Part shown: piece by piece, positions 729 through 30,901 of the stretch
How positions within the stretch are numbered: the stretch's first letter is position 1
Layout: the number at the start of each line of letters is the position of its first letter
Assembly: GCA_964566575.1 (NCBI GenBank)
Contig: CAZMKD010000147.1
Location: 13,001-77,000, forward strand
DNA: 64,000 bases
Origin: an uncultured Verrucomicrobiota bacterium
Lineage (GTDB): Bacteria > Verrucomicrobiota > Verrucomicrobiia > Palsa-1439
Direction: 5' to 3'
Translations under genes and position numbers: made by a program
Notes under the pieces: model-generated
Database searches by the model: none
Told to the model about the DNA's origin: nothing
What the model saw: the letters and a program-made list of their open reading frames with translations, nothing else

Positions 729-761
729 CGCAATTCAGGATGAGCGGCCGGCGGCTGCGAG

Positions 762-1037: not shown

Positions 1038-1040
1038 GGA

Positions 1041-1994: not shown

Positions 1995-1995
1995 G

Positions 1996-2544: not shown

Positions 2545-2555
2545 GATGTCCCTCC

Positions 2556-3299: not shown

Positions 3300-3377
3300 C
3301 GCGCGCAGTGTAGCAGAAACGTCAGTGGTGACAAGCGCGGGGGATTTACACATCGATGAGAACCGAGTATCCTTCCC

Positions 3378-4445: not shown

Positions 4446-4527
4446 CAAGCACTCGCCTGTTCGCTACTAGGAGAAACGTGCGCAACTATCCGGGAAACGA
4501 GCCGGCTCTTCGCAGTCTACGCGCCGC

Positions 4528-8404: not shown

Positions 8405-8471
8405 CGGCGAGGATAGCATGCGTTGAACAAGTTGGCTCGACAATTCGTCGGCGTGGTGAAAGATTATTTGC

Positions 8472-9350: not shown

Positions 9351-9365
9351 CGCGCATCCAATGGC

Positions 9366-12335: not shown

Positions 12336-13066
12336 TGCGCCCGCAATATCTCCTCGACCAACTGGGCGTCTTCCGGACGGTCCACACCGATGGAATCGTG
12401 CGGCGTGATCCAGACCTTGACGCCGAACCCATTATCGAGCGCGCGCAATTGTTCGAGCTTTTCTGTCTTCTCCAACTCCGAGGGCGGGAGCTGGACGAAT
12501 TTCATCAGGAAATCGCGCCGGTACGCGTAAATGCCCAGATGTTTGTAAAAGGTCGTGGCGTCACCGGGGTCGCGCACGAACGGAATCTGGCTGCGCGAAA
12601 AATACAGCGCGTTGCCGGTCTTGCCGATGACTACTTTGACGATGTTGGGATTCGTGAGTTGATCCGGGGCGTTGATCTTGCGGGCCAACGTTCCCATCAC
12701 GCAGCCAGGATCGCTCTGCATGCCTTCGATGAGCTGATCGATCATCTCCGGCCGCATCAACGGCTCGTCGCCCTGAATGTTGAGCACTAGTTCGCAGTCG
12801 AACGCCCGCGCGACTTCGGCGACCCGATCGGTGCCCGTCGCGCACTCGGGCGAGGTGAGCATTGCGTCGCCACCGTAGCTCTCGACGGCTTCAAGGATGC
12901 GCGTGTCTTCCGTCGCGACGACGACCTTGTCGACGCGTGTGGCCTTGGCGGCTTGCTCGTAAACACGCTGAACGAGCGTCTTACCGGCGATCAACGCTAG
13001 CGGCTTGCCGGGAAACCGTTGCGCGCCGTACCGGGCGGGAATCACGCCGAGCGTTCGCACTTTCAT
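12332..13066 (-). CDS. kdsB: 3-deoxy-manno-octulosonate cytidylyltransferase
   Basis: [16 protein letters not shown] followed by NIQGDEP. The start is assigned at [12 protein letters not shown]. Confidence 0.9.
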
Positions 13067-13122
13067 GGTGTTGAGTGTAACAGAATGAGCGCAGCTGACA
13101 AGCATCGGCGCGCTGCGGTAGA

Positions 13123-13437
13123 ATGACTGGAGTGAAGAACGATTCGTTCAAGGACTTCGTAGCCGAGCAACTGGCCGGCGTTCCCGATTTGAGCTGTCGG
13201 GCGATGTTTGGCGGCTATGGGCTGTACTCGGGCGAGAAATTCTTCGGCATCATCCACCGCGACACCCTCTACTTCAAAACCGATCGACAAACTGTCGGCG
13301 ACTTCATCGAGGCCGGAATGAAGCCGTTTCGTCCAAACAGGAAGCAGACATTGAAGAGCTACTACGAAGTCCCCGCCGACGTGCTCGAAGACCGGACCGT
13401 GCTCGTGGAATGGGCCGGAAAGGCGACTGCTGCCTGA
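13123..13437 (+). CDS. TfoX N-terminal domain protein
   Basis: 104 aa. Carries RAMFGGYGLYSGEKFFGII, the TfoX_N signature. Confidence 0.7.
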   Translation: MTGVKNDSFKDFVAEQLAGVPDLSCRAMFGGYGLYSGEKFFGIIHRDTLYFKTDRQTVGDFIEAGMKPFRPNRKQTLKSYYEVPADVLEDRTVLVEWAGKATAA

Positions 13438-13510
13438 ACCGCGCTTTTGTCCTCGACATTTCAAGCGTTTTCAGGCAGAAAACACGGTCAAAGGAGGTGG
13501 ATTCTCCACC

Positions 13511-14443
13511 ATGCAGAAGAAGGCTTTGGGCAGGGGACTGGACTCTCTTATCAGCGGCGGTTTTGTCGCAACTGTTGCTGTCGAACCACCACACGCGCCG
13601 GTCGCGGTGCGCCCGCTCGGCTCGCCGGTCGCGCCGGACAACGGCGACGGTGTCAGGCATTTGGACGTCGCCGACATTGACCGCAGCCGGTTTCAGCCGC
13701 GCACGGAGTTTGATCCCGGACAACTCCGCGAGTTAGCGGACTCGATCAAACAACGCGGAGTGATGCAGCCGTTGCTGGTCCGGCCTCTCAACGGAACCAG
13801 CCGCTTCGAGTTGATTGCCGGCGAACGTCGCTGGCGCGCGGCCCGCGAAGCCGGACTGACGAAGATACCGGCGTTGGTGCGCGAAGCCAGCGATCAGGAA
13901 GCACTTGAGATCGCGCTCATTGAAAACCTCCAGCGTGAGGACCTCAACCCGATCGAAGAAGCGCGCGCGTACGAGCAGTTGGCGACGCAGTTCAAGCTGA
14001 CACAGGAGCAGATCGCTGAGAAGGTCGGACGCAACCGGGCGACGGTCGCCAATGCGATGCGATTGCTGGGGTTACCGGTCGATGTGTTGTCGTGGGTCGC
14101 AGATAATCGGCTGACTGTCGGCCACGCCAAGGCGATTCTGGGGTTGACGATTGCGGAAGAGCAGAGGCTCGTCGCCGAGCGTGTGCTGAAGCGTAATCTC
14201 ACCGTCCGCGAGACGGAACAGCTCGTCGAGCAACTCAAGGGCGATACGAAGGTCCGGTCGCGGGCGTTGGGCGGGCCGGCAAAATCACCGCACATTCTGG
14301 TCATCGAAGAGAAGCTCCGGCAGAAGCTCGGCACGCATGTGAACGTGCAGCACGGCAAAAAGAAGGGCCGCATCGAGATCGAATACTACGGCAACGACGA
14401 CTTGGCACGCTTGCTCGGTATCTTTGGAGTTGAAAATCTCTGA
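13511..14443 (+). CDS. parB: ParB/Spo0J-family partition protein
   Basis: GRGLDSLI at the N-terminus and LIAGERRWRAAREAGL (the ParB box). A strong SD sequence AAAGGAGG lies upstream. Confidence 0.85.
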   Translation: MQKKALGRGLDSLISGGFVATVAVEPPHAPVAVRPLGSPVAPDNGDGVRHLDVADIDRSRFQPRTEFDPGQLRELADSIKQRGVMQPLLVRPLNGTSRFELIAGERRWRAAREAGLTKIPALVREASDQEALEIALIENLQREDLNPIEEARAYEQLATQFKLTQEQIAEKVGRNRATVANAMRLLGLPVDVLSWVADNRLTVGHAKAILGLTIAEEQRLVAERVLKRNLTVRETEQLVEQLKGDTKVRSRALGGPAKSPHILVIEEKLRQKLGTHVNVQHGKKKGRIEIEYYGNDDLARLLGIFGVENL

Positions 14444-14465
14444 GCGGTCTGAAACCGTCTGACGT

Positions 14466-15581
14466 GTGAACACGCCAGACCGCCAGCACCGCGCCAAGCG
14501 CTACGAGGCGATTCACAACGGCCTCTTTGTTGTGGAGGCGGGTTACTCCGCTACTTTGCTGGTGACGTTCCTGCTGACTGGTGCGTCGGATTTTCTCGCG
14601 GACTCGTCTCGCACCGTTTCGTCGAACCCATGGCTCGCAACGGCGGTGTATGCCGGCGTCGTGTCCGTGGCGGCGAAACTGTTGTTTCTTCCGCTGAACT
14701 TCTGCGGCGATTTTTATCTCGAACATCGGTTCGGACTCTCCAACGAATCGCTGGGCCGGTGGGCCGTGGATGAAGTAAAATCGCTCGCCTTGAACATCGT
14801 GCTCGGTGTGGTCGTGCTCGATGTCGTGTACTTCCTGTTGCGTCGGGCCGGGGACTGGTGGTGGGTCGGCGCCGGTATCTTTTCCCTGCTGTTTAGCGTC
14901 GTCCTCTCGACGATCTTTCCGGTGCTGATCCTGCCGTTGTTCTACAAACTGCAACCGCTGGAAAACGAATCGCTCAAGCAAAAGCTCGTGACGCTCGCGC
15001 AACGAGTCGGGGCGAGAGTGCTCGGTGTGTACCGGATGGGCATGAGCGAGAAGACGAAGAAGGCCAACGCCGCCTTTGCCGGCCTCGGTGCGACTAAACG
15101 CATCATTCTTGGCGACACGTTGCTCGATAGTTTTGCCGAAGACGAAATCGAAGTGGTCATGGCGCACGAGATGGCGCACTACAAACACGGCGACATCACC
15201 AAGCTGCTCGTGTGGAGCACGGCGACGACGTTTGTCGGTCTCTGGCTCGCGGACAAGGGGCTGCGGGCCGGCCTGCAGCATTTCGGCTTCACCGAGATCA
15301 GCGATCTCGGCGCGTTTCCGTTGCTGGCGTTGTGTTTGTTTGTGTTCGGTCTCGTGGCGATGCCGGTCAACAATGCATTCTCGCGCTGGCGGGAGCGGCT
15401 GGCGGACCACGAAGCGTTGGCGCTCACAGAAAATCCGGACGGTTTTGTCCGCGCGATGCGCAAGCTCGCGGATCAGAATCTCGCGGATCTCTCACCGCAT
15501 CCGGCCGTGGAATTCCTGCTGCACGATCATCCTTCGCTGGCGCGGCGCATTTCCTGGGCGGAGCAATGGCAACGAAGCTGA
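14466..15581 (+). CDS. M48 family metallopeptidase (Ste24/HtpX-like)
   Basis: Multi-TM N-terminus plus the HEMAHYKHGD zinc motif. Probable GTG start. Confidence 0.85.
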   Translation: MNTPDRQHRAKRYEAIHNGLFVVEAGYSATLLVTFLLTGASDFLADSSRTVSSNPWLATAVYAGVVSVAAKLLFLPLNFCGDFYLEHRFGLSNESLGRWAVDEVKSLALNIVLGVVVLDVVYFLLRRAGDWWWVGAGIFSLLFSVVLSTIFPVLILPLFYKLQPLENESLKQKLVTLAQRVGARVLGVYRMGMSEKTKKANAAFAGLGATKRIILGDTLLDSFAEDEIEVVMAHEMAHYKHGDITKLLVWSTATTFVGLWLADKGLRAGLQHFGFTEISDLGAFPLLALCLFVFGLVAMPVNNAFSRWRERLADHEALALTENPDGFVRAMRKLADQNLADLSPHPAVEFLLHDHPSLARRISWAEQWQRS

Positions 15582-16486
15582 GCCCGGCATTGCTCCTGAC
15601 AATCCTGCTGGCCGGCTGTGGTCGAAACCCGGCGCCGGAGATTCAGTGGCGCATGTTCAGCGGCGAGCGCGCCTATTCACAGGCCCAGAAGATCGTCGAC
15701 TTCGGCCCGCGACCCAGCGGCAGCCCGGCGCTGGCGCGGTTGACGGTCTCGCTGACCACGCAATTGCAGGAGTACGGATTGGCAGCCGACGAGCAGACGT
15801 TCATCGCGCCCACGCCGCGCGGCCCAGTGCAGTTTCGCAATCTCGTCGCCCGGACCCGCGGCGCACGCGGGGGCCCCGGCCAGGTTATCCTCATCGGCGC
15901 GCACTACGACACGAAGTGGATGACCAATACAACGTTCGTCGGCGCCAACGATGGCGCGTCGGGGGCGGCGGTGTTGCTGGAGATGGCGCGCGTGGCGTCG
16001 ACGCAGCCGAATTTGTGGTTCGTGTTCTTCGATGGCGAAGAGGCGACGCGCGAGTATGCCGAGGAGGACGGTCTGCACGGCAGCCGGTTCTTCGTCGAGG
16101 AACTAAAAGCCTCCGGCAGAATCAATTGGGTGAAGGCCATGGTCCTGCTCGACATGGTGGGTGACGCGCGCCTCAACATCAGCATGCCGGTCAACAGCGA
16201 CCCGAAGCTGGTCGAGCAAGTGTTCGAGGCGGCGCGCGATGCGGGCCACCGGGACTATTTTAGTTATGGCAAGAGCGAGATAGTGGACGATCACCTCCCC
16301 TTCCTGCGTGCCGGCATCCCGGCCGTGAACTTGATCGATTTTGAGTACGGAAGCGCACCGGGATTGAACGACTACTGGCACACCGGCCGGGATACGATGG
16401 ATAAAATCGTCCCGCGCAGCCTTGAGATTACTGGCCAGACGGCCTTACGACTGATTTCCCGCCTGAAAACCGTCGCCCCGCATTGA
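15566..16486 (+). CDS. M28 family peptidase lipoprotein
   Basis: Lipobox LLAGC, then ILIGAHYDTK...GANDGASGAAVLLEMAR and FVFFDGEE (M28 metal ligands). It overlaps the M48 gene end by about 16 nt. Confidence 0.8.
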   Translation: MATKLSPALLLTILLAGCGRNPAPEIQWRMFSGERAYSQAQKIVDFGPRPSGSPALARLTVSLTTQLQEYGLAADEQTFIAPTPRGPVQFRNLVARTRGARGGPGQVILIGAHYDTKWMTNTTFVGANDGASGAAVLLEMARVASTQPNLWFVFFDGEEATREYAEEDGLHGSRFFVEELKASGRINWVKAMVLLDMVGDARLNISMPVNSDPKLVEQVFEAARDAGHRDYFSYGKSEIVDDHLPFLRAGIPAVNLIDFEYGSAPGLNDYWHTGRDTMDKIVPRSLEITGQTALRLISRLKTVAPH

Positions 16487-16553
16487 ACCGGCCTGCCGTC
16501 TGCTCTACTCTGTGAATGGGCACCCGACGGGGGCGACCCACGGACGGAACATC

Positions 16554-18524
16554 ATGGACAAGCTGCAAGTGCTGACGAACGTCCCGCTGCTGGCCGGTCT
16601 CGGGGAAGAGTTGATGAAAGGGATGGCCGAGCGGGCGGGATTCGTCACGATTAAGAAGGGCGAACTGGTCTTTCGCGAGAACGATCCAGGGGATGCCCTC
16701 TATGCCGTCGTTACCGGCCGTCTGCAAGCCTACACCCGGCTCAGCAGCGGCCGCGAGCGTGTCTTCGCCACGTACTGCAATGGCGATTGTTTCGGTGAGA
16801 TGCCGCTGTTGTCCGGCGAAACACAATGGGCCAGCGTCCGCGCCCTCAACGACTCCGTCCTGTTGCGAATTCCCCGGGAAGACTTCGACGCCGTCGTCAA
16901 CCGCGATCCGCGCGTAGCCGTCGGCTTCACGCGTCGGCTCGCGCATCGTGTCAAGGAACTCCGTGCGGAAAAGAATCGCGCCAAGACCAGCAACATCATC
17001 GCGCTCTACAGCGCGGTGCCTGGTGCCGGCAAGACGCTACTGGCGACCAACCTTGTCGCCAGCCTCGCGCACGAAACGGCTGAGCCGGTCCTGTTGCTGG
17101 ATTTCAGCGGCCAGCAACGAGGCGAACCGTTGGCGGCCTGTGAGCGGATCGTCAGTCAGCCGAGCGCGCCATTGGACGGACTGGTGGTGCACACGCCGCT
17201 CGGCTACGACCGGCTCAATCTGACGATGCGGGGCGACGAACGCGAAGCTCCGTTGATCGCGCCACTGTTCGGCCGGTTGGTCAAACACTACGACTACGTG
17301 CTGGTCGATCTGCCGAACGAAGCGTCCGCGTCGACGATGGAATGTCTGCTGCAGGCCGATCAGGTTTACATCATTGCCCGGAGCGAAGAGGAACACCTGC
17401 ACCGGACCCGGTTGCTGTTGGACGACCTGCGTTCCCGCCGTCTTGGTGTCACGCCGAAGGCGCGCGTGATCCTCACTGCCGTCAGTGAAACCTGCGCGCC
17501 AACCGTCGAGGAATCGGAACGCAAGGTCGGTCAAGACATCAGTCATCTGCTGCGTTGGATACCGGAGACCGACATCATCGAGTCTGTGGACGGCGTGCCG
17601 TTCGTGTTGCGCCGTCCGATGGAAGCATACAGCCTCGTGGTGCGCCGCATGGCGCGCGAGCTGGGCAACGCGCTTGTCGGCCTCGCGCTCGGCACCGGCG
17701 CGGCACGCGGCTTGGGACACATCGGCGTCATCCGCGTTCTGGAGCGCGAGGGCTTGGCGGTGGACGTCGTGGCCGGCAGTTCGATGGGCGCGCTGGTCGG
17801 CGCAGCGTGGGCCGTCGGCAAATCGGCCGACGAGATGGAGCAGCTGGCGCTGCAGGTCAAGGGGCGACGAGCGTTCCTGCGATTGCTCGACCCGGTGTTC
17901 CCGGGATCGGGCTTCATCCGCGGCCTGAAAGTGCAGGAATTTCTGCACGGGATCGTGGACGAACTGACGTTTGCCGACACGCTCATCCCGCTCAAGATTA
18001 TCGCCAGCGATCTGAACACGATGGAAGAAATCGTCTTCGAGCACGGTCGGCTGCTCGATGCGATCCGCGCGAGCATTTCGATCCCCGGCGTCTTCCGTCC
18101 CGTCGCCAACAACGGCCACGTTCTCATCGACGGCGGCATCACCGACCCCGTGCCAGTCGACGTGCTGGTTCGTTCGGGGGTCACCAAGATCATCGCGGTC
18201 AACACCATCCCCAATGTGGACGAGATGAAACATCGGGCCTTGGTGCGCAGCGAGATGAAATCTGCGAAACGCGGCGAACCGGTTCGCGAAATCGGCCCGG
18301 TCGTCGAGACACCCACCAGCATCATCAACGTGTATATGCGCTCGATGCATGTAATGCAATCGCGCATGGCCGAGGAAGCCTGCACGCGCGCCGACGTGGT
18401 CCTGCGCCCGATTGTGGTTGGAGGCGTGTGGTACGATTTCTATCATCCCGAGAAGTATATTCGGGCGGGCGAACAAGCGGCCGAGGAAGCATTGCCGAAG
18501 TTGAAGGAGTTGATGCGCGCATGA
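16554..18524 (+). CDS. cyclic-nucleotide-binding domain / degenerate ParA-MinD-like domain / patatin-like phospholipase fusion protein
   Basis: A cNMP domain (GDCFGEMPLL), then IIALYSAVPGAGKTLLATNLV...YVLVDLP (a deviant P-loop), then patatin motifs GTGAARGLGHIGV, GSSMGA and DGG. The ORF opens at 16512 (GTG), but the start is placed at MDKLQ. Confidence 0.8.
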   Translation: MDKLQVLTNVPLLAGLGEELMKGMAERAGFVTIKKGELVFRENDPGDALYAVVTGRLQAYTRLSSGRERVFATYCNGDCFGEMPLLSGETQWASVRALNDSVLLRIPREDFDAVVNRDPRVAVGFTRRLAHRVKELRAEKNRAKTSNIIALYSAVPGAGKTLLATNLVASLAHETAEPVLLLDFSGQQRGEPLAACERIVSQPSAPLDGLVVHTPLGYDRLNLTMRGDEREAPLIAPLFGRLVKHYDYVLVDLPNEASASTMECLLQADQVYIIARSEEEHLHRTRLLLDDLRSRRLGVTPKARVILTAVSETCAPTVEESERKVGQDISHLLRWIPETDIIESVDGVPFVLRRPMEAYSLVVRRMARELGNALVGLALGTGAARGLGHIGVIRVLEREGLAVDVVAGSSMGALVGAAWAVGKSADEMEQLALQVKGRRAFLRLLDPVFPGSGFIRGLKVQEFLHGIVDELTFADTLIPLKIIASDLNTMEEIVFEHGRLLDAIRASISIPGVFRPVANNGHVLIDGGITDPVPVDVLVRSGVTKIIAVNTIPNVDEMKHRALVRSEMKSAKRGEPVREIGPVVETPTSIINVYMRSMHVMQSRMAEEACTRADVVLRPIVVGGVWYDFYHPEKYIRAGEQAAEEALPKLKELMRA

Positions 18525-18552
18525 AACTTAATTCTATTGTGGGAGCGTCGCG

Positions 18553-19986
18553 ATGAAATGGGATGAGATACCGGCGACCGAACAGCGCCGGCTACAAAAC
18601 GAGAAGCTGCACCGGTATCTCACCGAGGTCGTCGCGCCGTTCAGTCCGTACTACCGGAAGTTTGATCTCGGTAGGATCAAGACCGTCGAAGACCTCCGGC
18701 ATCTGCCGTTCACCACCAAAACCGATCTGCTGCCGACCTCTGAGCAGCCGGAAAAATTCCGCGAGTTCATCATCACGCCGGACATCACCGTACTCAAACA
18801 CCGGCCGCGCGTCATGGCCGAAGCCATGTTTCGCGGCCGGCGCGCCGTCGAGCGCCGGTTCGAGCGCGAGTACCGGCCGATCTTTCTCACCGCGACCACC
18901 GGTCGGAGTTCGTCCCCGGTCGCTTTCGCGTACACCGAGCATGACATGCACAATCTCCGCGAAACCGGCGCGCGACTGATCCAGACTTTTGGCTGCACCA
19001 CCAAGATGCGCGGGGTGAACATGTTTCCGTACGCGCCACATCTGGCTTTCTGGCAGGTCGTGTTTGCCGGGCTGGAGTTCGGGATGCTCATTCTCAGTAC
19101 CGGCGGCGGCAAAGTCATGGGCACGGACGGCAACATCCACGCGATCGAAAAGATCAAACCCGAAGCGCTCGCCGGCATCCCGACGTTCGTCTATCACGTC
19201 ATCCGTCAGGCCCACGAAGAAGGCCGGCGTTGGCCGCAAGTCAGCAAAATCATTCTCGGCGGCGAAAAATCTCCGCAAGGCATCCGGCGCAAGATTGTTA
19301 GTCTGTTGCAGGAAATGGGTGCCGGTGATGTCCGCGTCTGCAGCACGTATGGATTCACGGAGTCGCGCACCGCGTGGGGCGAATGCCCGCCGCCGCCCGG
19401 CGAATGGAGCGGCTATCATCTGTTCCCGGACCTCGGTATCTTCGAAGTCATTGACCCGATCACGAGCGAAGTGAAAGGGGAGGGAGAGCCGGGCGAGTTG
19501 GTTTACACGCCACTCGATGCGCGCGGCACCGTCGTGCTGCGTTACCGGACGGGCGACTATGTGGACGGCGGTCTCACGTGGGAACCGTGCCCGCATTGCG
19601 GCCGAACCGTGCCTCGCATCGTGGGCGGCATCGGTCGCGCGAGCAACACGAAAGAACTGCAGTTCGGGAAACTCAAGGGCACACTCGTCAACTTCGACAC
19701 CCTCCAACACATCCTCGACGACTCGTCCGATGTCAGCGAATGGCAACTCGAAATCCGCAAAGCCCATGACGATCCGCACGACGTGGACGAGCTTGTGCTA
19801 CACATCGCGCCCGACAACGGCGCAAACGTTGACCGCCTGAAGGACAAGATCCGGCAGCGCTTCCAGACAGAAGTCGAGGTCACGCCCAACCGCATCGAAG
19901 TTCATTCGCTCGATGATATGCTGCGCCGCATCAAGCTGGAAACCAGCCTCAAAGAAGTCCGTATTCTCGACGCCCGGCCGAAGTAA
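18553..19986 (+). CDS. phenylacetate-CoA ligase family (PaaK-like) adenylate-forming enzyme
   Basis: 477 aa. PaaK-like architecture with ...TTGRSSSPV..., YGFTES and GEPGELVYT. Confidence 0.8.
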   Translation: MKWDEIPATEQRRLQNEKLHRYLTEVVAPFSPYYRKFDLGRIKTVEDLRHLPFTTKTDLLPTSEQPEKFREFIITPDITVLKHRPRVMAEAMFRGRRAVERRFEREYRPIFLTATTGRSSSPVAFAYTEHDMHNLRETGARLIQTFGCTTKMRGVNMFPYAPHLAFWQVVFAGLEFGMLILSTGGGKVMGTDGNIHAIEKIKPEALAGIPTFVYHVIRQAHEEGRRWPQVSKIILGGEKSPQGIRRKIVSLLQEMGAGDVRVCSTYGFTESRTAWGECPPPPGEWSGYHLFPDLGIFEVIDPITSEVKGEGEPGELVYTPLDARGTVVLRYRTGDYVDGGLTWEPCPHCGRTVPRIVGGIGRASNTKELQFGKLKGTLVNFDTLQHILDDSSDVSEWQLEIRKAHDDPHDVDELVLHIAPDNGANVDRLKDKIRQRFQTEVEVTPNRIEVHSLDDMLRRIKLETSLKEVRILDARPK

Positions 19987-19992
19987 TTCGAT

Positions 19993-20053
19993 TGTGGGAG
20001 CGCCCTTCCGGGCGCGATTCCCCACCGGTCGCGCCCGGAAGGGCGCTCCTACA
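19993..20053. repeat. REPIN (inverted REP doublet) copy A
   Basis: TGTGGGAGCGCCCTTCCGGGCGCGA, a 12-nt spacer, then TCGCGCCCGGAAGGGCGCTCCTACA. Each arm contains the internal palindrome GCGCCC-TTCC-GGGCGC. Confidence 0.85.
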
Positions 20054-20382: not shown

Positions 20383-22950
20383 TCACGGGCCTAGCGGTTT
20401 GTTGTCCGGGCTGCCCTGGCCACTGCCCGGTGCGTCGTTTCCCTTCGGACTGCCCGGCGGCGCCGTGGCGATGACGTTGCGCGCCCCGTTAGAGCGTTTG
20501 CCGCAGTGCGATCTCGCCGCCTGGCTGACAATCTCGCCCTTCTGTTCCTCTGTAATCAGCCCGGCTGCCAGGAATTGGTTTGCGGCCTTGGCCACCCTCG
20601 ACACGTACTGACCGTGGTTTCTCCACGTCCCGCCAGCACGCGGTCCCGAGCACGGCACGAGTTGGTCAATGCTGCAGCCGTGGGTGTCAACGACCGCTCC
20701 CGCCACGGTGTTCGGGCATGAATCAAGGTCGTCACGCACTCCATCTCCGTCGCTGTCCGGGTTCTGGACTTCAAACGCGCCGATGTCGCTGCCGTCGCCG
20801 CCTGCGGCGTTGGCAATGGCGAGGAAGTTAACCGGCCGGGGGAAACCGCGCTGGTCGGTGGCCGCGCCGCTGAAGTTCTTGCCCTGATCAATAGCCGGGC
20901 TGCCGGGGAACAGCGCGTGTGTAAAGGTCGGGCCGCCGTTGTCCGCCAGCGGGCCGAGCAGTGGAGGAGTGTTGGTCTGGTCGCCGGTGTTGGTTAAGAA
21001 GCCGCCACCGTCATCGCTGCTCAGGTTGTAGCCGAGCGAGGTGACCGTGCCGTTTTGATTGCTGATGGTGCTGCCCGAAGCGCCAGCGTTTAGGATGGTG
21101 CTGCCGATTTCCAACGTCGCGCTGGTGCCGCCAAAATCTTCGTTGAAGATGCCGCCACATCCAACCTCGGCCGAGTTGCCGCTCACTGTGCTGTTGGCAA
21201 TCGTCAGCGTCCCGCCGGCGTTGTAGATGCCGCCGCCTTCACCTTGGCCTTCACCCTGGGCCGAGTTGCCGCTGAGGGTGCTGTTGGCGATCTGCACGGT
21301 CGCGCTGCTTTGAAAAGCTTCATTCAAGATGCCGCCGCCGAAGGTGGCCGAGTTGCCGCTGAGGGTGCTGTTGGCAATCGTCAGCGTCGCGCTGCCACCA
21401 TTGAAAGCTGCGTTGTAGATGCCGCCGCCTTCATACTGGGACGAGTTGCCGCTGAGGGTGCTGTTGCTAACCGTCAGCGTCGCGCTGCCATTGTTTCCGT
21501 CGTTCCAAATGCCGCCGCCGGAGACAGCCCTGTTGAGGCTCAGCGTGCTGTCGACAACCGTCAGGCTCGCGCTCCCGGTTCTACCGTCGTTGTAAATGCC
21601 GCCGCCGCCGTAGCCGGCCGAGTTGCCGCTCAGGGTGCTGTTGGCAATCGTCAGCATCCCGAAGTTGTCGATGCCGCCGCCGCTACCGGTGGCCGAGTTG
21701 CCAATGAGAGTGCAGTCGCTGACAGTCAGCGTCGCGTGGTCGTTGTAGATGCCGCCGCCCGCGTCGTCTGGGAAATTGAGGCCGGCAGTGTGACCGTTGG
21801 TAATCGTCAGGCTGGAGATGGTGACGGTTACGGCGTTCGTAATGTGAAACACGCGGCTGGCGGCGTTGCCGTCCACCGCCAGATTGCCGGGGCCGGGGCC
21901 GATGATGGTCACGCTTTTCGTGACGAGCAGTTCGCCGCTGGTCAGCAGAATGGTGCCGGAGACGCCGGTAGCATCAATGATGTCGCCGTCCGACGCACAC
22001 GCCAGTGCCGCGCGCAACGAGCCGGGGCCGCTGTCAGCGGTGGTCGTGACAAGGGGTGGAGAGCACGGAAACCAAAGAATCGCGTCGTTTTGGCCCGTGG
22101 AACTATTATACGCGTATCCAACGATGTTGCTATTGGCATCAACACCTTGCGCAAAGGAACTCGTGTAGTTCGACGAGAGGAAGCTGTGTAGGTCCACCGC
22201 GCTGGCTGCGGTGCCGGACCACAACAGTGCGTGGGGGTTGCCGCCCGCCATGGTTCCGTCGCCGACCTGCTGGCTACCGGAAAGGCCGAGGGCTTCCGAC
22301 ACAATGAATCCACTGGGGTTGAGGTCCACGGCGCTGACGGCCGTGCCGGACCATAACAGAGCGTGGACGTTGCCGCCCGTGCTGGGGCCGTATCCGTGGC
22401 CGACCTGCTGGCTACCGGAAATGCCGTTGGCGATCGAGTCAGTGAACCCGCTGGGGTGTAGGTCCACGGCGCTGGCCGCCGTGCCAGACCACAACAGCGC
22501 GTGATTGTTGAAGCCCGCCATGGTTCCGTTGCCGACCTGCTGGCTACCGGAAACGCCGAGGGCGTACGACCAACTGAACCCGCTGGGGTGTAGGTCCACG
22601 GCGCTGGCCGCTGTGCCAGACCACAACAGCGCATGGCTGTTGCCGCCCGTGCCGGGGCCGTATCCGTTGCCGACCTGCTGGCTGCCGGAAATGCCGCCGG
22701 CACCCGACTCAGTGAATCCGCTGGGGTTGAGGTCCACGGCGCTGGCCGCTGTGCCAGACCACAACAGCGCATGGCTGTTGCCGCCTGTGAGGCCGGAGCC
22801 GACCTGCTGGCTACCGGAAATGCCGAGGGCGGCCGAATCAATGAACCCGCTGGGGTTGAGGTCAATGAATGTGTACTGCGCTTCGACCGCCACGGGCACG
22901 GCCACAATCGCCAGCGCGAGCATCCAAATGGTTTGTTTTCTCGATTTCAT
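20383..22950 (-). CDS. secreted beta-propeller-like/right-handed beta-helix adhesin-like protein with thrombospondin-type-3 (calcium-binding) repeat
   Basis: 855 aa. Signal peptide, then about six units of 'HALLWSGTAASAVDLNPSGF..GISGSQQVGNG', then GGGIYN/ANSTLSGNSA parallel beta-helix repeats, then a DSDGDGVRDDLD calcium-binding repeat. Confidence 0.8.
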   Translation of the reverse strand: MKSRKQTIWMLALAIVAVPVAVEAQYTFIDLNPSGFIDSAALGISGSQQVGSGLTGGNSHALLWSGTAASAVDLNPSGFTESGAGGISGSQQVGNGYGPGTGGNSHALLWSGTAASAVDLHPSGFSWSYALGVSGSQQVGNGTMAGFNNHALLWSGTAASAVDLHPSGFTDSIANGISGSQQVGHGYGPSTGGNVHALLWSGTAVSAVDLNPSGFIVSEALGLSGSQQVGDGTMAGGNPHALLWSGTAASAVDLHSFLSSNYTSSFAQGVDANSNIVGYAYNSSTGQNDAILWFPCSPPLVTTTADSGPGSLRAALACASDGDIIDATGVSGTILLTSGELLVTKSVTIIGPGPGNLAVDGNAASRVFHITNAVTVTISSLTITNGHTAGLNFPDDAGGGIYNDHATLTVSDCTLIGNSATGSGGGIDNFGMLTIANSTLSGNSAGYGGGGIYNDGRTGSASLTVVDSTLSLNRAVSGGGIWNDGNNGSATLTVSNSTLSGNSSQYEGGGIYNAAFNGGSATLTIANSTLSGNSATFGGGILNEAFQSSATVQIANSTLSGNSAQGEGQGEGGGIYNAGGTLTIANSTVSGNSAEVGCGGIFNEDFGGTSATLEIGSTILNAGASGSTISNQNGTVTSLGYNLSSDDGGGFLTNTGDQTNTPPLLGPLADNGGPTFTHALFPGSPAIDQGKNFSGAATDQRGFPRPVNFLAIANAAGGDGSDIGAFEVQNPDSDGDGVRDDLDSCPNTVAGAVVDTHGCSIDQLVPCSGPRAGGTWRNHGQYVSRVAKAANQFLAAGLITEEQKGEIVSQAARSHCGKRSNGARNVIATAPPGSPKGNDAPGSGQGSPDNKPLGP
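22198..22870. repeat. about 126-144-bp tandem DNA repeats (5 units) inside the adhesin gene
   Basis: Near-identical units each begin GTCCACGGCGCTGGCCGC(T/C)GTGCCAGACCACAACAGCGC. They start at about 22198, 22325, 22463, 22589 and 22733. Confidence 0.7.
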
Positions 22951-24992: not shown

Positions 24993-25075
24993 TGTAGGAG
25001 CGCCCTTCCGGGCGCGACCGGGTGGAGTGCTGATTCCATCCCCACAGCCCTCGCGCCCGGAAGGGCGCTCCCACA
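24993..25075. repeat. REPIN copy B
   Basis: TGTAGGAGCGCCCTTCCGGGCGCGA, a 33-nt spacer, then TCGCGCCCGGAAGGGCGCTCCCACA. It starts 9 nt after the methyltransferase stop. Confidence 0.85.
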
Positions 25076-25135: not shown

Positions 25136-26374
25136 ATGACGCGACTGGCCATCATCGACGGGGTGCGGACGCCGTTCTGCAAAGCCGGAACGGACCTCAA
25201 AGCATTGCCGGCGCAAGACCTCGGCCGCATCGTCGTCAGCGAAGTGCTGGAACGCACGAGCTTCAAGCCCGGTAAGGTCTCGCAAGTCATCTTCGGCTGC
25301 GTCGCGCAACCGGCGGAAGCCGCCAACATCGCACGCGTCATCGCCCTCAACGCCGGCATCCCGCACGAAGTTCCCGCGTACACCGTGCATCGCAATTGCG
25401 CGAGCGGCTTCGAGGCGATCACCAGCGCGTATGAGAAAATGGTGGCCGGGCAGGGTGATGTGTTTGTCGTCGGCGGCACCGAAAGCATGTCGAACATCCC
25501 GCTGCTGTATTCGACCGCCGCTGCCGAGAAGTTCGCCGCGCTCGCAAAGGCGAAGAGCTTGCCGGACAAGGTCCGCGCCGCTCTCGGTTTTCGGCCATCG
25601 GACTTCCGTCCTCGCATCGGCATCATGCTCGGTCTCACCGATCCAACTTGCGGCCTCAACATGGGGCAAACGGCAGAGGTTCTTTACCGGGATTTCGGCA
25701 TCAGCCGGGAAGACCAGGACCGGTTCGCGCTCGATTCGCACTTGAAAGCAGCAAAAGCGCGGGCGAAGTTGCACGAAGAGATTACCACTGTTTATTTGCC
25801 GCGCGGGAAGTTCACGCAAGACGACAACGGCGTTCGCGAGAATCAGACGATGGAGGCGCTGGCGAAGCTAAAGCCAGTCTTCGCGAAGCACAACGGCACC
25901 GTAACAGCCGGCAATTCCTCGCAACTCACCGACGGCGCCGTCGCGTTGCTGGTGATGAGCGAAGACAAAGCACGCGAGTTGAAGTTGGATCCGCTCGGTT
26001 ATCTTCGCAGCTACGCGTATGCCGGTTGTGAGCCGCAGCGTATGGGGCTTGGCCCGGCCTACGCGATTCCGGAGGCACTCGAAGCGGCGCGCGTCCGGTG
26101 GGACGAGATCCAACTGATCGAAATCAACGAAGCGTTCGCCGTGCAAGTGCTCGCCGTCGAAACGTTCCTGCGCAAGCAATCCGGTTTGACCATCAACCGC
26201 GACCTGCTCAACGTCAACGGCGGCGCGATCGCGCTCGGTCACCCGGTCGGTGCGAGCGGTGCACGGCTCGTATTGACTCTGCTGAAGGAAATGAAGCGCC
26301 GAAACCTGAAGACCGGTCTGGCCTCGGCTTGTGTCGGCGGCGGGCAGGGGGCGGCGTTGGTTGTGGAGAGATGA
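25136..26374 (+). CDS. fadA: acetyl-CoA C-acyltransferase (thiolase, FadA-like)
   Basis: NRNCASGFEAI (the active-site Cys region) and the C-terminal GGAIALGHPVGASGARL and CVGGGQG. Confidence 0.9.
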   Translation: MTRLAIIDGVRTPFCKAGTDLKALPAQDLGRIVVSEVLERTSFKPGKVSQVIFGCVAQPAEAANIARVIALNAGIPHEVPAYTVHRNCASGFEAITSAYEKMVAGQGDVFVVGGTESMSNIPLLYSTAAAEKFAALAKAKSLPDKVRAALGFRPSDFRPRIGIMLGLTDPTCGLNMGQTAEVLYRDFGISREDQDRFALDSHLKAAKARAKLHEEITTVYLPRGKFTQDDNGVRENQTMEALAKLKPVFAKHNGTVTAGNSSQLTDGAVALLVMSEDKARELKLDPLGYLRSYAYAGCEPQRMGLGPAYAIPEALEAARVRWDEIQLIEINEAFAVQVLAVETFLRKQSGLTINRDLLNVNGGAIALGHPVGASGARLVLTLLKEMKRRNLKTGLASACVGGGQGAALVVER

Positions 26375-26394
26375 ACGAGGCAAGGAACAGCAAT

Positions 26395-26469
26395 TGTGGG
26401 AGCACCCTTCCGGGCGCGATTCCGGCCGCATCGCCACAAACCGGTCGCGCCCGGAAGGGCGCTCCCACA
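26395..26469. repeat. REPIN copy C
   Basis: TGTGGGAGCACCCTTCCGGGCGCGA, a spacer, then TCGCGCCCGGAAGGGCGCTCCCACA. Confidence 0.85.
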
Positions 26470-26721
26470 ACAACATCGAAGCCGCAACTGCCGCATTCTT
26501 CCGCCCTGCGCAAAGGCCGCTGGTCATGGCCGAATCATTGTTACTTCGTCACGACCAATGCAGCGGATATGAAGCCGATGTTCGCACACAAAGAGGCAGC
26601 CCATGTCGTCATCGAGTCACTGGTCTGGCTTCAGCAGGAGGGGCGAATCAGGCTAATGGGATTTGTCGTCATGCCGGATCATGTGCATCTGGCGTTTGTG
26701 TTGTGCGATGCGCGCGACCGG

Positions 26722-26793
26722 TCGCGCGCAGAAGCGCGCTCCCACAATCAGAAGGACAAGGCTGCCATTGTGGGAGCGCCCTTCCGGGCGCGA
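26722..26793. repeat. REP arms (one variant arm plus one canonical arm) inserted in frame inside the RAYT coding sequence
   Basis: TCGCGCGCAGAAGCGCGCTCCCACA ... TGTGGGAGCGCCCTTCCGGGCGCGA. It translates as ...CDARDRSRAEARSHNQKDKAAIVGAPFRARSG... between the HVHL motif and the SFKGYTGKKIN segment. Confidence 0.8.
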
Positions 26794-27064
26794 TCTGGAT
26801 TGTCGGTGGTGATGAATTCATTCAAAGGCTACACCGGCAAGAAGATCAACGAGTTGCTCGGCCGGCATGGGGACGTGTGGCAACCGGCCTACTACGAGCA
26901 TCTGGTCCGAGACGAAAAGGACTTTCGCGCACGGCTCGATTACATGCACGCCAATCCGATTCGCAAAGGGCTGGCGCAATTCGAGGTGGACTGCGAATTC
27001 TCGAGCGCGAATCCGAAGTGTGCGCATTTGGTCGATTGGAACTGGCTATTTGGCGTTGAGCCGG

Positions 27065-27089
27065 TCGCGCCCGGAAGGGCGCTCCCACA
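27065..27089. repeat. single REP arm abutting the fadB start codon
   Basis: TCGCGCCCGGAAGGGCGCTCCCACA is followed immediately by the ATG at 27090. Confidence 0.8.
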
Positions 27090-29039
27090 ATGAAGGGCAA
27101 GTCGATCAATCTCGAACGGGATGCTGACGGCATCGCGTGGGTGGTGTTCGATGACCCGAACGCCAAGGTCAACGTTTTCAACTCCGGCAACGTCGCGTTG
27201 CTGGACCGGATTCTCGACGAACTGGCGCAGCAGAAACCGAAGCGTGTCGTCTTCATCAGCGGCAAGCCGGACACCTTCATTGCCGGGGCGGACATTAAAG
27301 AGTTGGAGAAAATTCGCGACGACGCGCACGGCGAGGAACTATCGAGGGCTGGTCACAAGATTTTCGCCAAGATCGAGAACCTCGGCGTCTCGACGGTGGC
27401 GGCGATAGATGGCGCGTGCCTCGGCGGCGGCTGCGAGTTAGCGCTGGCGTGCAGCGCCCGGGTGGCGACTGACAATCCGAAGACACAGATTGGGCTGCCG
27501 GAAACGCAACTTGGCATAATTCCCGGCTGGGGCGGCACACAGCGGTTGCCGGGATTGATCGGATTGCGTGCGGCGCTGGAGATCATCGTGCCCGGCAAGA
27601 CGCTGGATGCTGCGCGCGCCTTGAAGGTCGGACTTGTGGACGCCGTCGTGCCCAAAGTTGCGTTGCGAGAGGCTGCGGTGAAAACAATTTGTAGGAGCGC
27701 CCTTCCGGGCGCGACCGGCCGGAGTCGCGCGCAGAAGCGCGCTCCCACATTGCCGGACTTTATCGTGCGTGCGATTGCTCGCAAGCAAACCCTGGCGAAA
27801 ACCCACGGTCATTATCCGGCGCCGTTGAAGGCGATCGAAATTGCCGGGCGCGGGTTCGAGGCGGAGGCGCGGGCGTTCGGCGAAGTGTCGGCAACATCGC
27901 AGTGCAAGAACCTGATTCGGGTTTTCTTTCTACGCGAGAAATACTCGAAGCTGCGGTTGCCGGGCGGCGAGAGAGCGAAGAAGATTGAGAAGGTCGGCGT
28001 GCTTGGCGCCGGCACGATGGGCGCCGGCATCGCGATGTGGTGCAGCGCGCGCGGCTTGACGGTGCGGTTGAAGGACATCAAGCCGGAGTTTGTTGCGGTC
28101 GGCATGAAACGCATCGAGGACGCTTACCGGGATGGGGTAAAGCGGCGCAAAATTACCGAGTTGCAGATGCAGCAAGGCATGGCGCGCGTGCATCCGACTA
28201 CCGAGTACACGGGCTTCGGTGATTGCAACATCGTCATCGAGGCGGTGCTGGAGAAGATCGAGATCAAGCGGCCGGTCTTCAGCGAACTCACGCCACTGCT
28301 CCGGCCAGACTGTGTTATCGCGTCGAACACCTCGGCGATTCCGATCGATGATCTGGCGGCAGCGACGGGACGGCCGGAGAAGTTTGTCGGGATTCACTTT
28401 TTCAATCCCGTTCACAAGATGCCACTGGTGGAAGTGGTGCGCGGCACAAAGACGTCGCCGGAAGTCGTCGCCGCAGCCGTTGAGTTTGCGAAGCAGCTCA
28501 AGAAGATACCGGTGGTCGTCAAAGGCGCGCCGGGGTTCTTGGTGAACCGGTTGTTGATGCCGTACCTGAACGAAGCCGGCGTCATATTGGGCGAAGGCGT
28601 GGGCGTGGAAGCGTTGGACAAGGCAATGGTGGATTTTGGCTGGCCGATGGGGCCGGCACGGTTGATTGACGAAATCGGCATTGACGTGACGCTGGATGTG
28701 GCACGCGAGTTGGCCGAGGCGTTTCGTGGCCGGATGATTGTCGCGCCAATTCTCCGGCAAGTGCACGAGCAGGGCTTGAAAGGGCGCAAGGGTGGGGCAG
28801 GGTTTTACATCGGGGACCGGCCGAACCCGGCCGTCAAACTTCCCGGCGGCAAGAGCCTGAGCGCCGACGAGATTCAGAAGCGGTTGATGAACGCGATGGT
28901 GGCGGAAGCCAAGTTATGCTTGAAGGAGGGGATTGTCGCGGCGGAGGACGACATTGATGTGGCGCTGATTTTCGGTACCGGCTTCCCGCCGTTTCGTGGT
29001 GGGCTGGTGAAATGGGCGCGCGATACGGAGGTGTGGTGA
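27090..29039 (+). CDS. fadB: fatty-acid oxidation complex alpha subunit-like (enoyl-CoA hydratase + 3-hydroxyacyl-CoA dehydrogenase), FadB/FadJ-like
   Basis: Crotonase fold (AAIDGACLGGGCELAL) and an NAD-binding domain (VGVLGAGTMGAGIA), 649 aa in total. Confidence 0.9.
   Translation: MKGKSINLERDADGIAWVVFDDPNAKVNVFNSGNVALLDRILDELAQQKPKRVVFISGKPDTFIAGADIKELEKIRDDAHGEELSRAGHKIFAKIENLGVSTVAAIDGACLGGGCELALACSARVATDNPKTQIGLPETQLGIIPGWGGTQRLPGLIGLRAALEIIVPGKTLDAARALKVGLVDAVVPKVALREAAVKTICRSALPGATGRSRAQKRAPTLPDFIVRAIARKQTLAKTHGHYPAPLKAIEIAGRGFEAEARAFGEVSATSQCKNLIRVFFLREKYSKLRLPGGERAKKIEKVGVLGAGTMGAGIAMWCSARGLTVRLKDIKPEFVAVGMKRIEDAYRDGVKRRKITELQMQQGMARVHPTTEYTGFGDCNIVIEAVLEKIEIKRPVFSELTPLLRPDCVIASNTSAIPIDDLAAATGRPEKFVGIHFFNPVHKMPLVEVVRGTKTSPEVVAAAVEFAKQLKKIPVVVKGAPGFLVNRLLMPYLNEAGVILGEGVGVEALDKAMVDFGWPMGPARLIDEIGIDVTLDVARELAEAFRGRMIVAPILRQVHEQGLKGRKGGAGFYIGDRPNPAVKLPGGKSLSADEIQKRLMNAMVAEAKLCLKEGIVAAEDDIDVALIFGTGFPPFRGGLVKWARDTEVW
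27690..27749. repeat. REPIN copy inserted in frame inside the fadB-like CDS
   Basis: TGTAGGAGCGCCCTTCCGGGCGCGA, then CCGGCCGGAG, then TCGCGCGCAGAAGCGCGCTCCCACA. It translates as ...TICRSALPGATGRSRAQKRAPTL... in the linker between the hydratase and dehydrogenase domains. Confidence 0.8.
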
Positions 29040-29584: not shown

Positions 29585-29616
29585 ATTGTGGTCGCGCCCG
29601 GAAGGGCGCTCCTACA
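29585..29616. repeat. degenerate REPIN (left arm reduced to ATTGTGG, intact right arm)
   Basis: ATTGTGG + TCGCGCCCGGAAGGGCGCTCCTACA. The TAG stop codon of tadA (29612..29614, minus strand) lies within the right arm. Confidence 0.75.
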
Positions 29617-30079
29617 GGCGTCTGACGCGGAAGAAATCCTGCAGAAGTTGCCGCGCTTCGGCTTCTTTCACACCGGCGTTGACGGTGACCGTGTGGTTGA
29701 GTCCGCCCTGCCCGGTAATGTCGAAGATTGAACCGGCCCCGCCGCTCTTCGGATCGGCCACGCCGTAGACGAGTCGCTGCACCCGCGCCAGCACAGTCGC
29801 GCCGGCGCACATCGGGCACGGCTCTTTGGTAACGAAGAGCGTCGAGCCGTCAAGCCGCCAATCGCCGACGGCCTGCGCCGCTTGGGTGATGGCGAGAACT
29901 TCGGCGTGGGCCGTGGCGTCTTTCAGCAGTTCGACCTGATTGAACGCGCGCGCGATGATTTTGCCGTCGCGGGCAATGACTGCGCCGACCGGGACTTCTT
30001 CGGCGTCGAACGCCATCCGCGCTTGTCGGAGCGCTTCGCCCATAAAGTAATCGTCACTGGTGAGCTCGATTTCGGACAT
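29612..30079 (-). CDS. tadA: tRNA-specific adenosine deaminase
   Basis: HAEVLAI and PCPMCAGA, the CDA zinc motifs. The start is assigned at MSEIELTSDDYFMGEAL. Confidence 0.85.
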   Translation of the reverse strand: MSEIELTSDDYFMGEALRQARMAFDAEEVPVGAVIARDGKIIARAFNQVELLKDATAHAEVLAITQAAQAVGDWRLDGSTLFVTKEPCPMCAGATVLARVQRLVYGVADPKSGGAGSIFDITGQGGLNHTVTVNAGVKEAEARQLLQDFFRVRRL

Positions 30080-30115
30080 TTGCCGGATGCTAGCCGGTCG
30101 GCTAGGATTCGACAA

Positions 30116-30901
30116 GTGAGCAAGATCGCGGACATTTCGACGGGACGTACACGGCTGCGGGTGACCGGTGCCGACCGAGCGGAGTTCCTGCACGGGCAGT
30201 GCACGAACAGCATCAAGAAGCTCCGGCCGGGCCAGAGTTGCTACGCGGCGTTTCTCAACGCGAAGGGAAAGATGCGGGGTGATGCGCACGTCGTTTGTCG
30301 GCCAGAGGAGTTCTTGTTGGAGGCGAGCGTCGGGCTGCAAGCATCACTGGAGAAGTTTGTCATTACGGAGGACGTGGTGATCGAAGACGTCAGCGCGTCG
30401 CTGGGCGCGTGGCTGGTGATCGATGAATCGCCGGGCGGCATTACATTCGAGCATCCGCTTGGGACGGGCGTGTTGAGCGCCGAGCCGCTGCCGGTCAAGG
30501 TGGATGCCGGAGCGCTGGAGGTGTTGCGAGTGGAGGCCGGTGTTCCCGCTTGGGGCGTGGATATGGATGAGGAAACCATTCCCGTCGAGGCCGGTTTGGC
30601 GGCACGGGCGATTTCGTACGACAAAGGCTGTTACATCGGCCAAGAGACGATCGCGCGGATCAAGACGTACGGCCATGTGAACCGACATCTGGTGCAGTTG
30701 GTCGGGGAAAGCGAGACCGGGCCGGGCGCGAGCCTGTCGGTCGGCGAGCGGGAGGCGGGGCGGTTGACCAGCGTGGTGCGCTCGAACCGGCTTGGCAAAT
30801 TCATCGCGCTGGGATACGTTCGGCGTGAGTGCGCCAAAGCGGGAACGGTCCTGCAGGCGGGCGAACAATCATGGGAGATCATCAAGTTATGTGGCGAATG
30901 A
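30116..30901 (+). CDS. folate-binding YgfZ/GcvT-family protein
   Basis: Aminomethyltransferase-like fold (...GCYIGQETIARIKTYGHVNR...). A probable GTG start was chosen so that the gene does not overlap tadA. Confidence 0.7.
   Translation: MSKIADISTGRTRLRVTGADRAEFLHGQCTNSIKKLRPGQSCYAAFLNAKGKMRGDAHVVCRPEEFLLEASVGLQASLEKFVITEDVVIEDVSASLGAWLVIDESPGGITFEHPLGTGVLSAEPLPVKVDAGALEVLRVEAGVPAWGVDMDEETIPVEAGLAARAISYDKGCYIGQETIARIKTYGHVNRHLVQLVGESETGPGASLSVGEREAGRLTSVVRSNRLGKFIALGYVRRECAKAGTVLQAGEQSWEIIKLCGE

Follow-up and report, generated by a model that had tools for sequence, protein, structure and literature searches.

A doublet of repetitive extragenic palindrome (REP) units, or REPIN, was recognized inside an enzyme gene in a 64,000-nt stretch of DNA from an uncultured Verrucomicrobiota bacterium (contig CAZMKD010000147.1, positions 13,001 to 77,000; hereafter the window). 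The doublet occupies positions 27690–27749 of the window, within a gene on the + strand (27090–29039) for a 649-aa FadJ/FadB-like alpha subunit of the trifunctional enzyme (TFE), with enoyl-CoA hydratase and 3-hydroxyacyl-CoA dehydrogenase domains. This gene is designated as fadJ here. A gene for a REP-associated tyrosine transposase (RAYT) is located directly upstream, and REP sequence is found at the same site of fadJ in related genomes. The fadJ doublet is probably an old REP insertion which has been inherited as coding sequence, as a tolerated passenger upheld by REP/RAYT dynamics.

The REP doublet and the loop it encodes

The REP units of this family are built as tGT(A/G)G-GA-GCGCCC-TTCC-GGGCGC-GA, including a short hairpin. 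In fadJ, an inverted repeat was confirmed, with two arms of 26 nt each (27690–27715 and 27724–27749) that are 85% complementary and are separated by 8 nt. The left arm, on the + strand, is a type A unit (tGTAG-GAGCGCCC-TTCC-GGGCGCGA-c) encoding C201–T209 (CRSALPGAT), and its 21-nt core is identical to eight further copies in the window. The spacer is CGGCCGGA (27716–27723, + strand). The right arm, on the − strand, is a type B unit with the stem variant GCGCGC-TTCT-GCGCGC and a GTGG tag; on the + strand it reads (S)RAQKRAPT. The right arm is the old arm, common to orthologues. The GTRG tags of the two arms point outward, and the doublet is thus a head-to-head dimer. Allowing up to three mismatches, 12 copies of the 21-nt core GGAGCGCCCTTCCGGGCGCGA were counted in the window, while no copy appeared in 100 dinucleotide-preserving shuffles. 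This segment is a genuine REP doublet with GTAG and GTGG tags. The initial annotation had reported a complete REP doublet here, and its arms are exactly where it placed them; it was also correct that the doublet lies between the hydratase and dehydrogenase domains of the 649-aa open reading frame (ORF) without breaking the frame.

The doublet corresponds to codons 201–220 (CRSALPGATGRSRAQKRAPT) of this ORF, which is free of stop codons throughout. The 60-mer is open in five of its six reading frames, and therefore the survival of such a sequence in frame is not improbable. Typical REPINs are extragenic, and the fadJ copy, being inside codons, is not. Because intragenic REPs are a documented exception, this weakens the designation as a typical REPIN but not the membership in the REP family.

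An RNA fold in this segment had been suggested as a possibility, and one is predicted: the 60 nt fold at −38.6 kcal/mol (z = −4.4), and none of 200 shuffles folded equally well. The mRNA hairpin may affect translation. No terminator-like site was detected at 27690–27749, for which reason the hairpin was rejected as an intrinsic terminator, and no Rfam family was matched in the whole window.

The 649-aa protein includes the Pfam domains ECH_1 (residues 13–200) and 3HCDH_N (residues 301–478), plus 3HCDH. Since ECH_1 ends at residue 200 and 3HCDH_N begins at residue 301, the element is positioned at the start of the inter-domain linker. The best solved relative in the PDB sequence comparison was the E. 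coli anaerobic TFE alpha subunit (E-value 5e-139). The gene for the partner subunit, a FadA/FadI-like thiolase with the Pfam domains Thiolase_N and Thiolase_C, is predicted upstream on the + strand (25136–26374). The crotonase domain, the dehydrogenase domains, and the thiolase gene characterize the protein, at the sequence level, as a TFE alpha subunit (FadB/FadJ). The alternative that the hydratase and the dehydrogenase are separate genes with a REPIN between them was rejected, as the 649 codons contain no stop and the linkers of REP-free orthologues are continuous. The description of the gene as essential in the initial annotation found no support in anything analyzed here.

A structural model was built with AlphaFold2 from the orthologue alignment (mean predicted local distance difference test score, pLDDT, 91; predicted template modelling score, pTM, 0.87). 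Foldseek matched it over the full-length fold to 6YSV with a template modelling (TM) score of 0.92. In the model, residues 203–222 are a coil flanked by the helices 189–202 and 223–238, and pLDDT falls below 50 at residues 206–216 alone. As this coil bears the sole low-pLDDT stretch, the REP-encoded residues are predicted to form a disordered, Gly/Ala/Pro/Arg-rich surface loop at the start of a helical linker, which the enzyme appears to tolerate. A tolerated linker segment, as proposed earlier, is accordingly the best reading of the encoded residues.

The length of the linker indicates how the loop was formed. Between the VP and F[IL]V anchors, the linker is 35 aa in the window, versus 24 aa in the closest REP-free orthologue (+11). 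At the orthologous locus L081, the doublet stands in for almost all of the native loop (27 residues). In E. coli FadJ, the REP-encoded position is taken up by an unrelated loop of comparable length which is not a repeat. Based on these three observations, the REP is likely to have become the loop rather than an addition to it. The earlier estimate of about 20 extra residues is therefore right for the residues encoded (20) but not for the net gain of the linker (11 aa).

Conservation of the insertion among orthologues

The linker was surveyed in an alignment of 26 orthologues and in 120 homologues, and the DNA of 10 orthologues was obtained through exact look-up of their proteins. The DNA sample is thus small, consisting of 11 loci including the window. 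Exact look-up of the window's own 649-aa protein gave no identical record. Profile scans of genome contigs with the FadJ alignment, and of metagenome contigs with a clade-specific sub-alignment, were dominated by generic NAD-binding motifs; among the matches listed, relatives reached at most 47% identity, besides two higher short partial matches.

The state of the linker differs among the 10 orthologous loci. A full doublet is present in L081, L083, and L084, and a well-formed (−) arm alone, corresponding to the right arm of the window, is present in L085, L086, and L168. Relics of the (−) arm were recognized in L167, where the hairpin is intact and the GTGG tag is lost, and in L169, where the arm is decayed. 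Almost nothing is recognizable in L170, and L082 is REP-free. Including the arms recognized in the peptides P0052 and P0054, the (−) arm is found at the same linker site in at least nine orthologues, down to 66% identity, and both its orientation and its frame (TGRARKGAPT) are constant. It always reads (T)GR-x-RK-x-APT, just upstream of the conserved W-P-x-x-F / QNxWPxRP motif, and its distance to the W-P motif varies by small indels alone. The spacers of the orthologous doublets are 8, 11, and 2 nt; all are 2 modulo 3, which keeps the reading frame. More distant FadJ homologues (P0096–P0120) have unrelated sequence at the linker position.

With five of six frames open, a constant frame and orientation are not expected from independent hits. 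Outside the linker, the orthologous proteins are 66–85% identical to the window protein, and the third-codon positions are 47–57% identical, which indicates that the shared insertion is old. The presence of REP sequence in these orthologues, with site, orientation, and frame all shared, speaks against the recent, lineage-specific insertion implied by the initial annotation.

The quality of the linker REP can be compared with the presence of a RAYT gene. L168 (GCA_964533295.1), the most divergent locus, has the full layout of the thiolase, a RAYT with an internal REP pair, a single REP, and fadJ with a linker REP. The same thiolase-RAYT-REP-fadJ arrangement is observed in L085 and L086, while the contig of L083 ends inside the RAYT. 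Altogether, the linker REP is well formed in L083–L086 and L168, each of which has an adjacent RAYT with the same REP layout. In L167, L169, L170, and L082, where the flanks fetched revealed no RAYT near fadJ, it is decayed or unrecognizable.

To clarify what is conserved in the element, nine orthologous (−) arms were aligned, and pairing was counted over the 6-bp stem. In total, 94% of cells are paired, and three of the six pairs are changed on both sides (CCC/GGG, CGC/GCG, and ACA/TGT). The covariation score was reached by none of 500 shuffles and was far lower in the slid-partner controls, although this test may be inflated by relatedness and by the derivation of the structure from the same sequences. 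The encoded peptide shifts while the hairpin is kept, as seen in RARKGAPT, RAQKRAPT, RDKNVAPT, and RGRNVAPT. The doublets of L083 and L084 match arm for arm with one nucleotide difference each, and differ by 2–7 nt from other REPs in their own loci. The stem variant common to these two loci (type C, GCGRCA...TGYCGC) was observed in fadJ copies only, among 170 loci.

Extra conservation of the arm was not seen in the raw sequence. The mean pairwise identity of the arm is 0.74, or 0.77 among the good copies, compared with 0.71 over the gene, and only a few pairs reached nominal p < 0.05 among 36 tests. The expectation that the in-gene arm is more conserved than the gene was dropped on these values. 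What is conserved is the position, the frame, the outer bases, and the pairing, and not the inner stem sequence. The covariation could result from selection on the hairpin in situ, or from an exchange of the copy for other REP variants, all of which form hairpins by their build.

The RAYT gene and the REP population of the window

The RAYT gene (26371–27093, + strand, 240 aa) is located between the thiolase gene and fadJ. The ORF scored 107.5 bits against the NCBIfam model NF047646 (cut-off 80) and was similar to E. coli TnpA_REP (PDB 4ER8; E-value 6.7e-10). The residues H71 and H73 (HVH), Y158, N162, and P163 are invariant or nearly so among 27 homologues. From what is known of the family and from the alignment with 4ER8, Y158 is presumably the catalytic tyrosine of the Y-x-x-x-NP helix. 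By these sequence features, the ORF is assigned as a genuine RAYT. It is flanked by REPs of the same family at 26395–26469 and 27064–27089, as is characteristic of a cognate RAYT.

The gene overlaps with both neighbors by 4 nt (ATGA): its ATG with the stop codon of the thiolase gene (26371–26374), and its TGA with the start codon of fadJ (27090–27093). The upstream overlap is also observed in L085 (9296–9299) and L168 (7207–7210). These overlaps suggest that a gene derived from a transposase is translationally coupled to genes of beta-oxidation.

The reading frame of RAYT runs through five REP units that belong to its own family. An A+/A− doublet (26395–26469) just after the thiolase stop codon falls in the predicted N-terminus of RAYT (CGSTLPGA...GRARKGAPT), for which 26371 and 26569 are the candidate start positions, and such a REP-containing N-terminus is likewise called in the homologues P0121–P0124. 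A tail-to-tail REP(−)/REP(+) pair (26721–26794) is in frame right after the HUH motif (PDHVHLAFVL) and encodes RSRAEARSHN...VGAPFRARS. A single REP on the − strand (27064–27089) encodes the C-terminus (VAPGRALPQ, followed by the stop codon) and abuts the fadJ start codon. Among close RAYT homologues, the internal insertion is a pair, a (−) unit alone, a (+) unit alone, or absent, and it is missing from more distant RAYTs and from E. coli TnpA_REP. No report of REPs inside a RAYT ORF was found in the literature searched, although absence there is no proof of novelty.

The surroundings of the RAYT gene vary. In L084 (NCBI GCA_041488115.1), the RAYT gene is at 8107–8763, upstream of the thiolase gene, with the same internal and 3′ REPs. 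The thiolase gene directly abuts fadJ in L081, L082, L167, L169, and L170; the upstream gene of L082 is known from its last 51 codons on the contig. The genes are otherwise in a syntenic block of ParB, M48, M28, patatin, and AMP-ligase genes followed by thiolase-fadJ-algH-tadA, and the differing positions of RAYT and the direct contacts of thiolase with fadJ indicate that RAYT moved or was lost within this block. A 199-aa gene upstream in L081 was considered as a RAYT and rejected, as it encodes a low-complexity Thr/Gly-rich protein with no family match.

All 12 REP units of the window are at 19.9–29.7 kb, no farther than approximately 7 kb from the RAYT gene. The rest of the window, ~54 kb (1–19900 and 29700–64000), yielded no REP at up to three mismatches, and three matches there with five mismatches had no GTRG tag. 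Judging from the window, this could be a small REP family grouped around its RAYT rather than a dispersed one. Every copy has a 6-bp GC-rich stem and a 4-nt loop; the tag is tGTAG in four copies and tGTGG in eight. Exact copies are also present in five related loci.

Five units are extragenic, five are in the RAYT ORF, and two are in fadJ, so that 7/12 are in predicted coding sequence. The extragenic units sit just downstream of stop codons. One doublet (19993–20053) begins 7 nt past the stop codon of an AMP-dependent ligase gene (18553–19986), and another (24993–25075) is between a methyltransferase-like ORF (stop at 24984) and the thiolase gene. A single REP on the − strand (29591–29616) follows an algH-like gene, and its GTAG tag supplies the TAG stop codon (29612–29614) of a convergent cytidine/adenosine-deaminase-like (tadA-like) ORF (29612–30340, − strand).

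Further stem variants on the same REP scaffold were observed in relatives, such as GGGGCA-TTCT-TGCCCC and GCGGCG-TCCC-CGCCGC (L083, 6879–6899; L085, 11969–12014; L086, 4448–4493), and mixed A(+)/B(−) doublets are found outside genes in related genomes. The L083 copy at 6879 falls inside a called ORF at the contig end. Between two REP doublets of the window, an 855-aa ORF (20383–22950, − strand) has about five N-terminal repeats like HALLWSGTAASAVDLNPSGF, followed by many NSTLSGNSA (beta-helix-like) repeats. It is not at the matching position in the related loci examined.

Origin of the fadJ doublet and comparison with known systems

The following history is proposed for the fadJ doublet. Before the sampled genomes diverged (FadJ identity down to 66%), a REP belonging to the population of the neighboring RAYT would have entered a hypervariable loop where the inter-domain linker of FadJ begins. 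Landing in an orientation and a frame without stop codons would have permitted its inheritance as coding sequence, and the REP would have partly replaced the native loop instead of being simply added to it. Near a RAYT, the copy would keep its GTRG tag and intact 6-bp hairpin, and at times a second arm, and elsewhere it would erode into ordinary basic linker sequence. Upkeep may proceed via re-insertion or conversion at the existing REP, or via selection on the hairpin as a RAYT substrate. As the REP-like state tracks a nearby RAYT, upkeep would be due to REP/RAYT dynamics and not to a need of the enzyme. The insertion would thus have been single and ancient, neutral for FadJ, and dependent on RAYT for its upkeep. 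The arm-for-arm match between L083 and L084, both unlike their local REPs, counts for inheritance.

Several observations weigh against this history. L081 has a very good doublet, yet its fetched flanks include no RAYT, and the closest relative, L082, is without a REP. The left junctions vary between genomes, the REP starting 1, 6, or 8 residues past the conserved L-R-E/Q, and the left arm is present in only 4 of the 11 loci; several gains or losses are needed to explain both. The left arm of the window is a perfect copy of the consensus of its genome, which suggests a recent event for this arm. The compensatory stem changes and the fadJ-only type C stem could mean that the hairpin is under selection and that the element is perhaps not neutral.

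Part of these observations would be explained if the linker, approximately 600 bp from the RAYT gene, is a hot spot which was repeatedly and independently struck by REPs or REPINs, perhaps owing to a target preference for an existing REP relic or for the local sequence; the doublet in the window would then be recent and lineage-specific. The differing junctions, the coexistence of single and double states, and the turnover of the RAYT-internal insertion among close homologues (pair, single, or none) fit such repeated hits, as do the left arm identical to the local consensus, the right arm identical to the RAYT-internal type B copy, and the restriction of all window copies to the vicinity of RAYT. 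This explanation is nevertheless considered unlikely, as orientation, frame, and position relative to the W-P motif are constant although most frames are open, relics persist in L167 and L169, where neither a RAYT nor a further REP was detected in the flanks fetched, and L083 and L084 resemble each other rather than their own local REPs. It is somewhat more doubtful that the hairpin itself is selected as a functional nucleic-acid element, whether as a RAYT binding or cleavage site, a ribosome-pausing mRNA structure, or a barrier to mRNA decay in the thiolase-RAYT-fadJ operon. Compensatory changes on both sides preserve the hairpin while the peptide alters, the orthologous doublets fold with z-scores between −5 and −10.5, compared with −1.5 for the linker of L082, which has no REP, type C is restricted to fadJ copies, and RAYT is coupled into the operon by ATGA overlaps on both sides in the window and on the upstream side in L085 and L168. 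On the other hand, the raw identity of the arm (0.74–0.77) is no higher than the gene average (0.71), the element is decayed or absent in L167, L169, L170, and L082 with the enzyme apparently intact, and neither a terminator-like tail nor an Rfam family is associated with it. Replacement by other REP variants would also give covariation, and the covariation test is open to inflation. In an extended form, equally tentative, the REP hairpins in coding sequence (two units in fadJ and five in RAYT) would be kept by selection at the nucleic-acid level, and the operon-embedded RAYT would bind or process the REP structures of its own operon, at the level of DNA or mRNA, and would thereby link a domesticated transposase/REP system with the expression of a beta-oxidation operon. 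If true, this would be compensatory stem evolution in situ inside a protein-coding gene over a long divergence.

Two other explanations are very improbable. Repeats mislead assemblers, and GC-rich DNA yields long accidental ORFs, many of which are present in the window; the doublet might thus be a repeat mis-assembled into the gene, or the gene might be dead with an accidentally open frame. The full-length ORF with all of its Pfam domains, the 66–85% identity to orthologues outside the linker, and the confident model with a TM score of 0.92 to solved TFE alpha subunits speak against this, and the presence of a REP or doublet at the same site in independent assemblies from other samples makes an assembly artefact very unlikely. 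It is just as hard to believe that the REP family arose from the fadJ linker. The initial annotation had regarded a linker sequence shared by orthologues as a sign of such an origin, and the sequence is indeed shared at this site. However, the REP has the canonical build of a GTRG tag and a hairpin, flanks RAYT, and occurs outside genes in several contexts and genomes, while the distant homologues P0096–P0120 have unrelated sequence at the position. The gene therefore probably acquired the REP long ago and was not its source.

The old insertion inherited as coding sequence, if correctly recognized, has consequences at several levels. For annotation, the 60 bases would be genuine coding sequence that should not be mistaken for an assembly error, a split gene, or a frameshift. 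For REPIN/RAYT biology, the loci would provide a dated series of one in-gene REP insertion, intact near RAYT and eroding where none was found nearby, which bears on how REP populations are maintained and on what RAYTs do. The operon-coupled RAYT which reads through five REP units would be a compact system for the action of RAYT on REPs in cis. For protein evolution, it would show clearly how a mobile palindrome can supply an inter-domain loop and renew it.

The enzyme itself resembles E. coli FadJ (PDB 6YSV and 8BNU) in its fold (TM score 0.92), sequence (39% identity), domain order, and adjacent thiolase partner gene.

The palindromic elements of Rickettsia (RPEs) are tolerated as extra peptide segments and are common to orthologues of related species. 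RPE-1 is approximately 100–150 bp in length and resides in reduced intracellular genomes; to our knowledge, no RAYT is known for it. The size of 60 nt and the linkage to RAYT argue against membership of the fadJ doublet in this group; no relationship in sequence is expected, and the likeness is a functional analogy only. RPEs (Ogata et al. 2000, as cited in PMC3733652) are the classical analogy for in-frame palindromes in protein-coding genes.

In the work on REPIN-RAYT systems (Bertels and Rainey 2011, PMC3116915; "Ancient Darwinian replicators", bioRxiv 10.1101/2021.07.10.451892), REPINs were defined and analyzed as extragenic elements, and RAYTs are treated as single-copy genes that are passed on vertically and keep a fixed place in the genome. 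The system in the window is similar in the inverted doublet forming a long hairpin, in the RAYT flanked by its own REPs, and in the vertical inheritance at a fixed position. It is different in that more than half of its REP units are in predicted coding sequence and that RAYT is embedded in an operon, overlapping each of its two neighbors by ATGA.

The closest parallel is the catalogue of REPs located wholly inside ORFs by Di Nocera et al. (2013, BMC Genomics 14:522, PMC3733652), in which GTAG-type cases were most numerous in the verrucomicrobium Opitutus terrae. It includes approximately 70 entries from O. terrae, with in-frame GTAG REPs, single or as head-to-head dimers, of the families GTAG-17, GTAG-18, and GTAG-19 in ordinary enzymes. 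Over half are dimers or groups, and the dimers encode 20–30 Gly/Ala/Pro/Arg-rich residues. GTAG tags often provide stop codons, GTAG REPs are associated with RAYTs, and GTGG variants occur in O. terrae. The fadJ doublet corresponds to these cases: it comes from the same phylum, both REPs are GTRG-tagged hairpins wholly inside an ORF of known function longer than 120 aa, they are in frame in an enzyme, and the dimer encodes 20 aa. The TAG stop codon supplied to the neighboring ORF at 29612–29614 is a further likeness. The doublet is thus not the first of its kind; in-frame REP dimers are already on record for Verrucomicrobia, and its description as unusual in the initial annotation is not supported.

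The REP family of the window is distinct from GTAG-17, GTAG-18, and GTAG-19, as judged from peptides and not from consensus DNA: those families encode VAGVADPG, VGPALAAG, and GTGVPPV, and the family in the window encodes VGAPFRAR, CGSALPGA, and RARKGAPT. The table of PMC3733652 includes neither a fadB/fadJ nor a transposase host, and none of the peptides CGSALPGA, VGAPFRAR, and RARKGAPT. A REP at the same site in two species was given there only for recB of two Xanthomonas species. In fadJ, by contrast, the site is common to genomes with approximately 50% identity at third-codon positions, the hairpin has undergone compensatory changes, and decay tracks the lack of a nearby RAYT. Three features appear to go beyond the literature searched: how deeply the insertion is shared among orthologues, the series of its decay states, and a RAYT ORF that reads through its own REPs.

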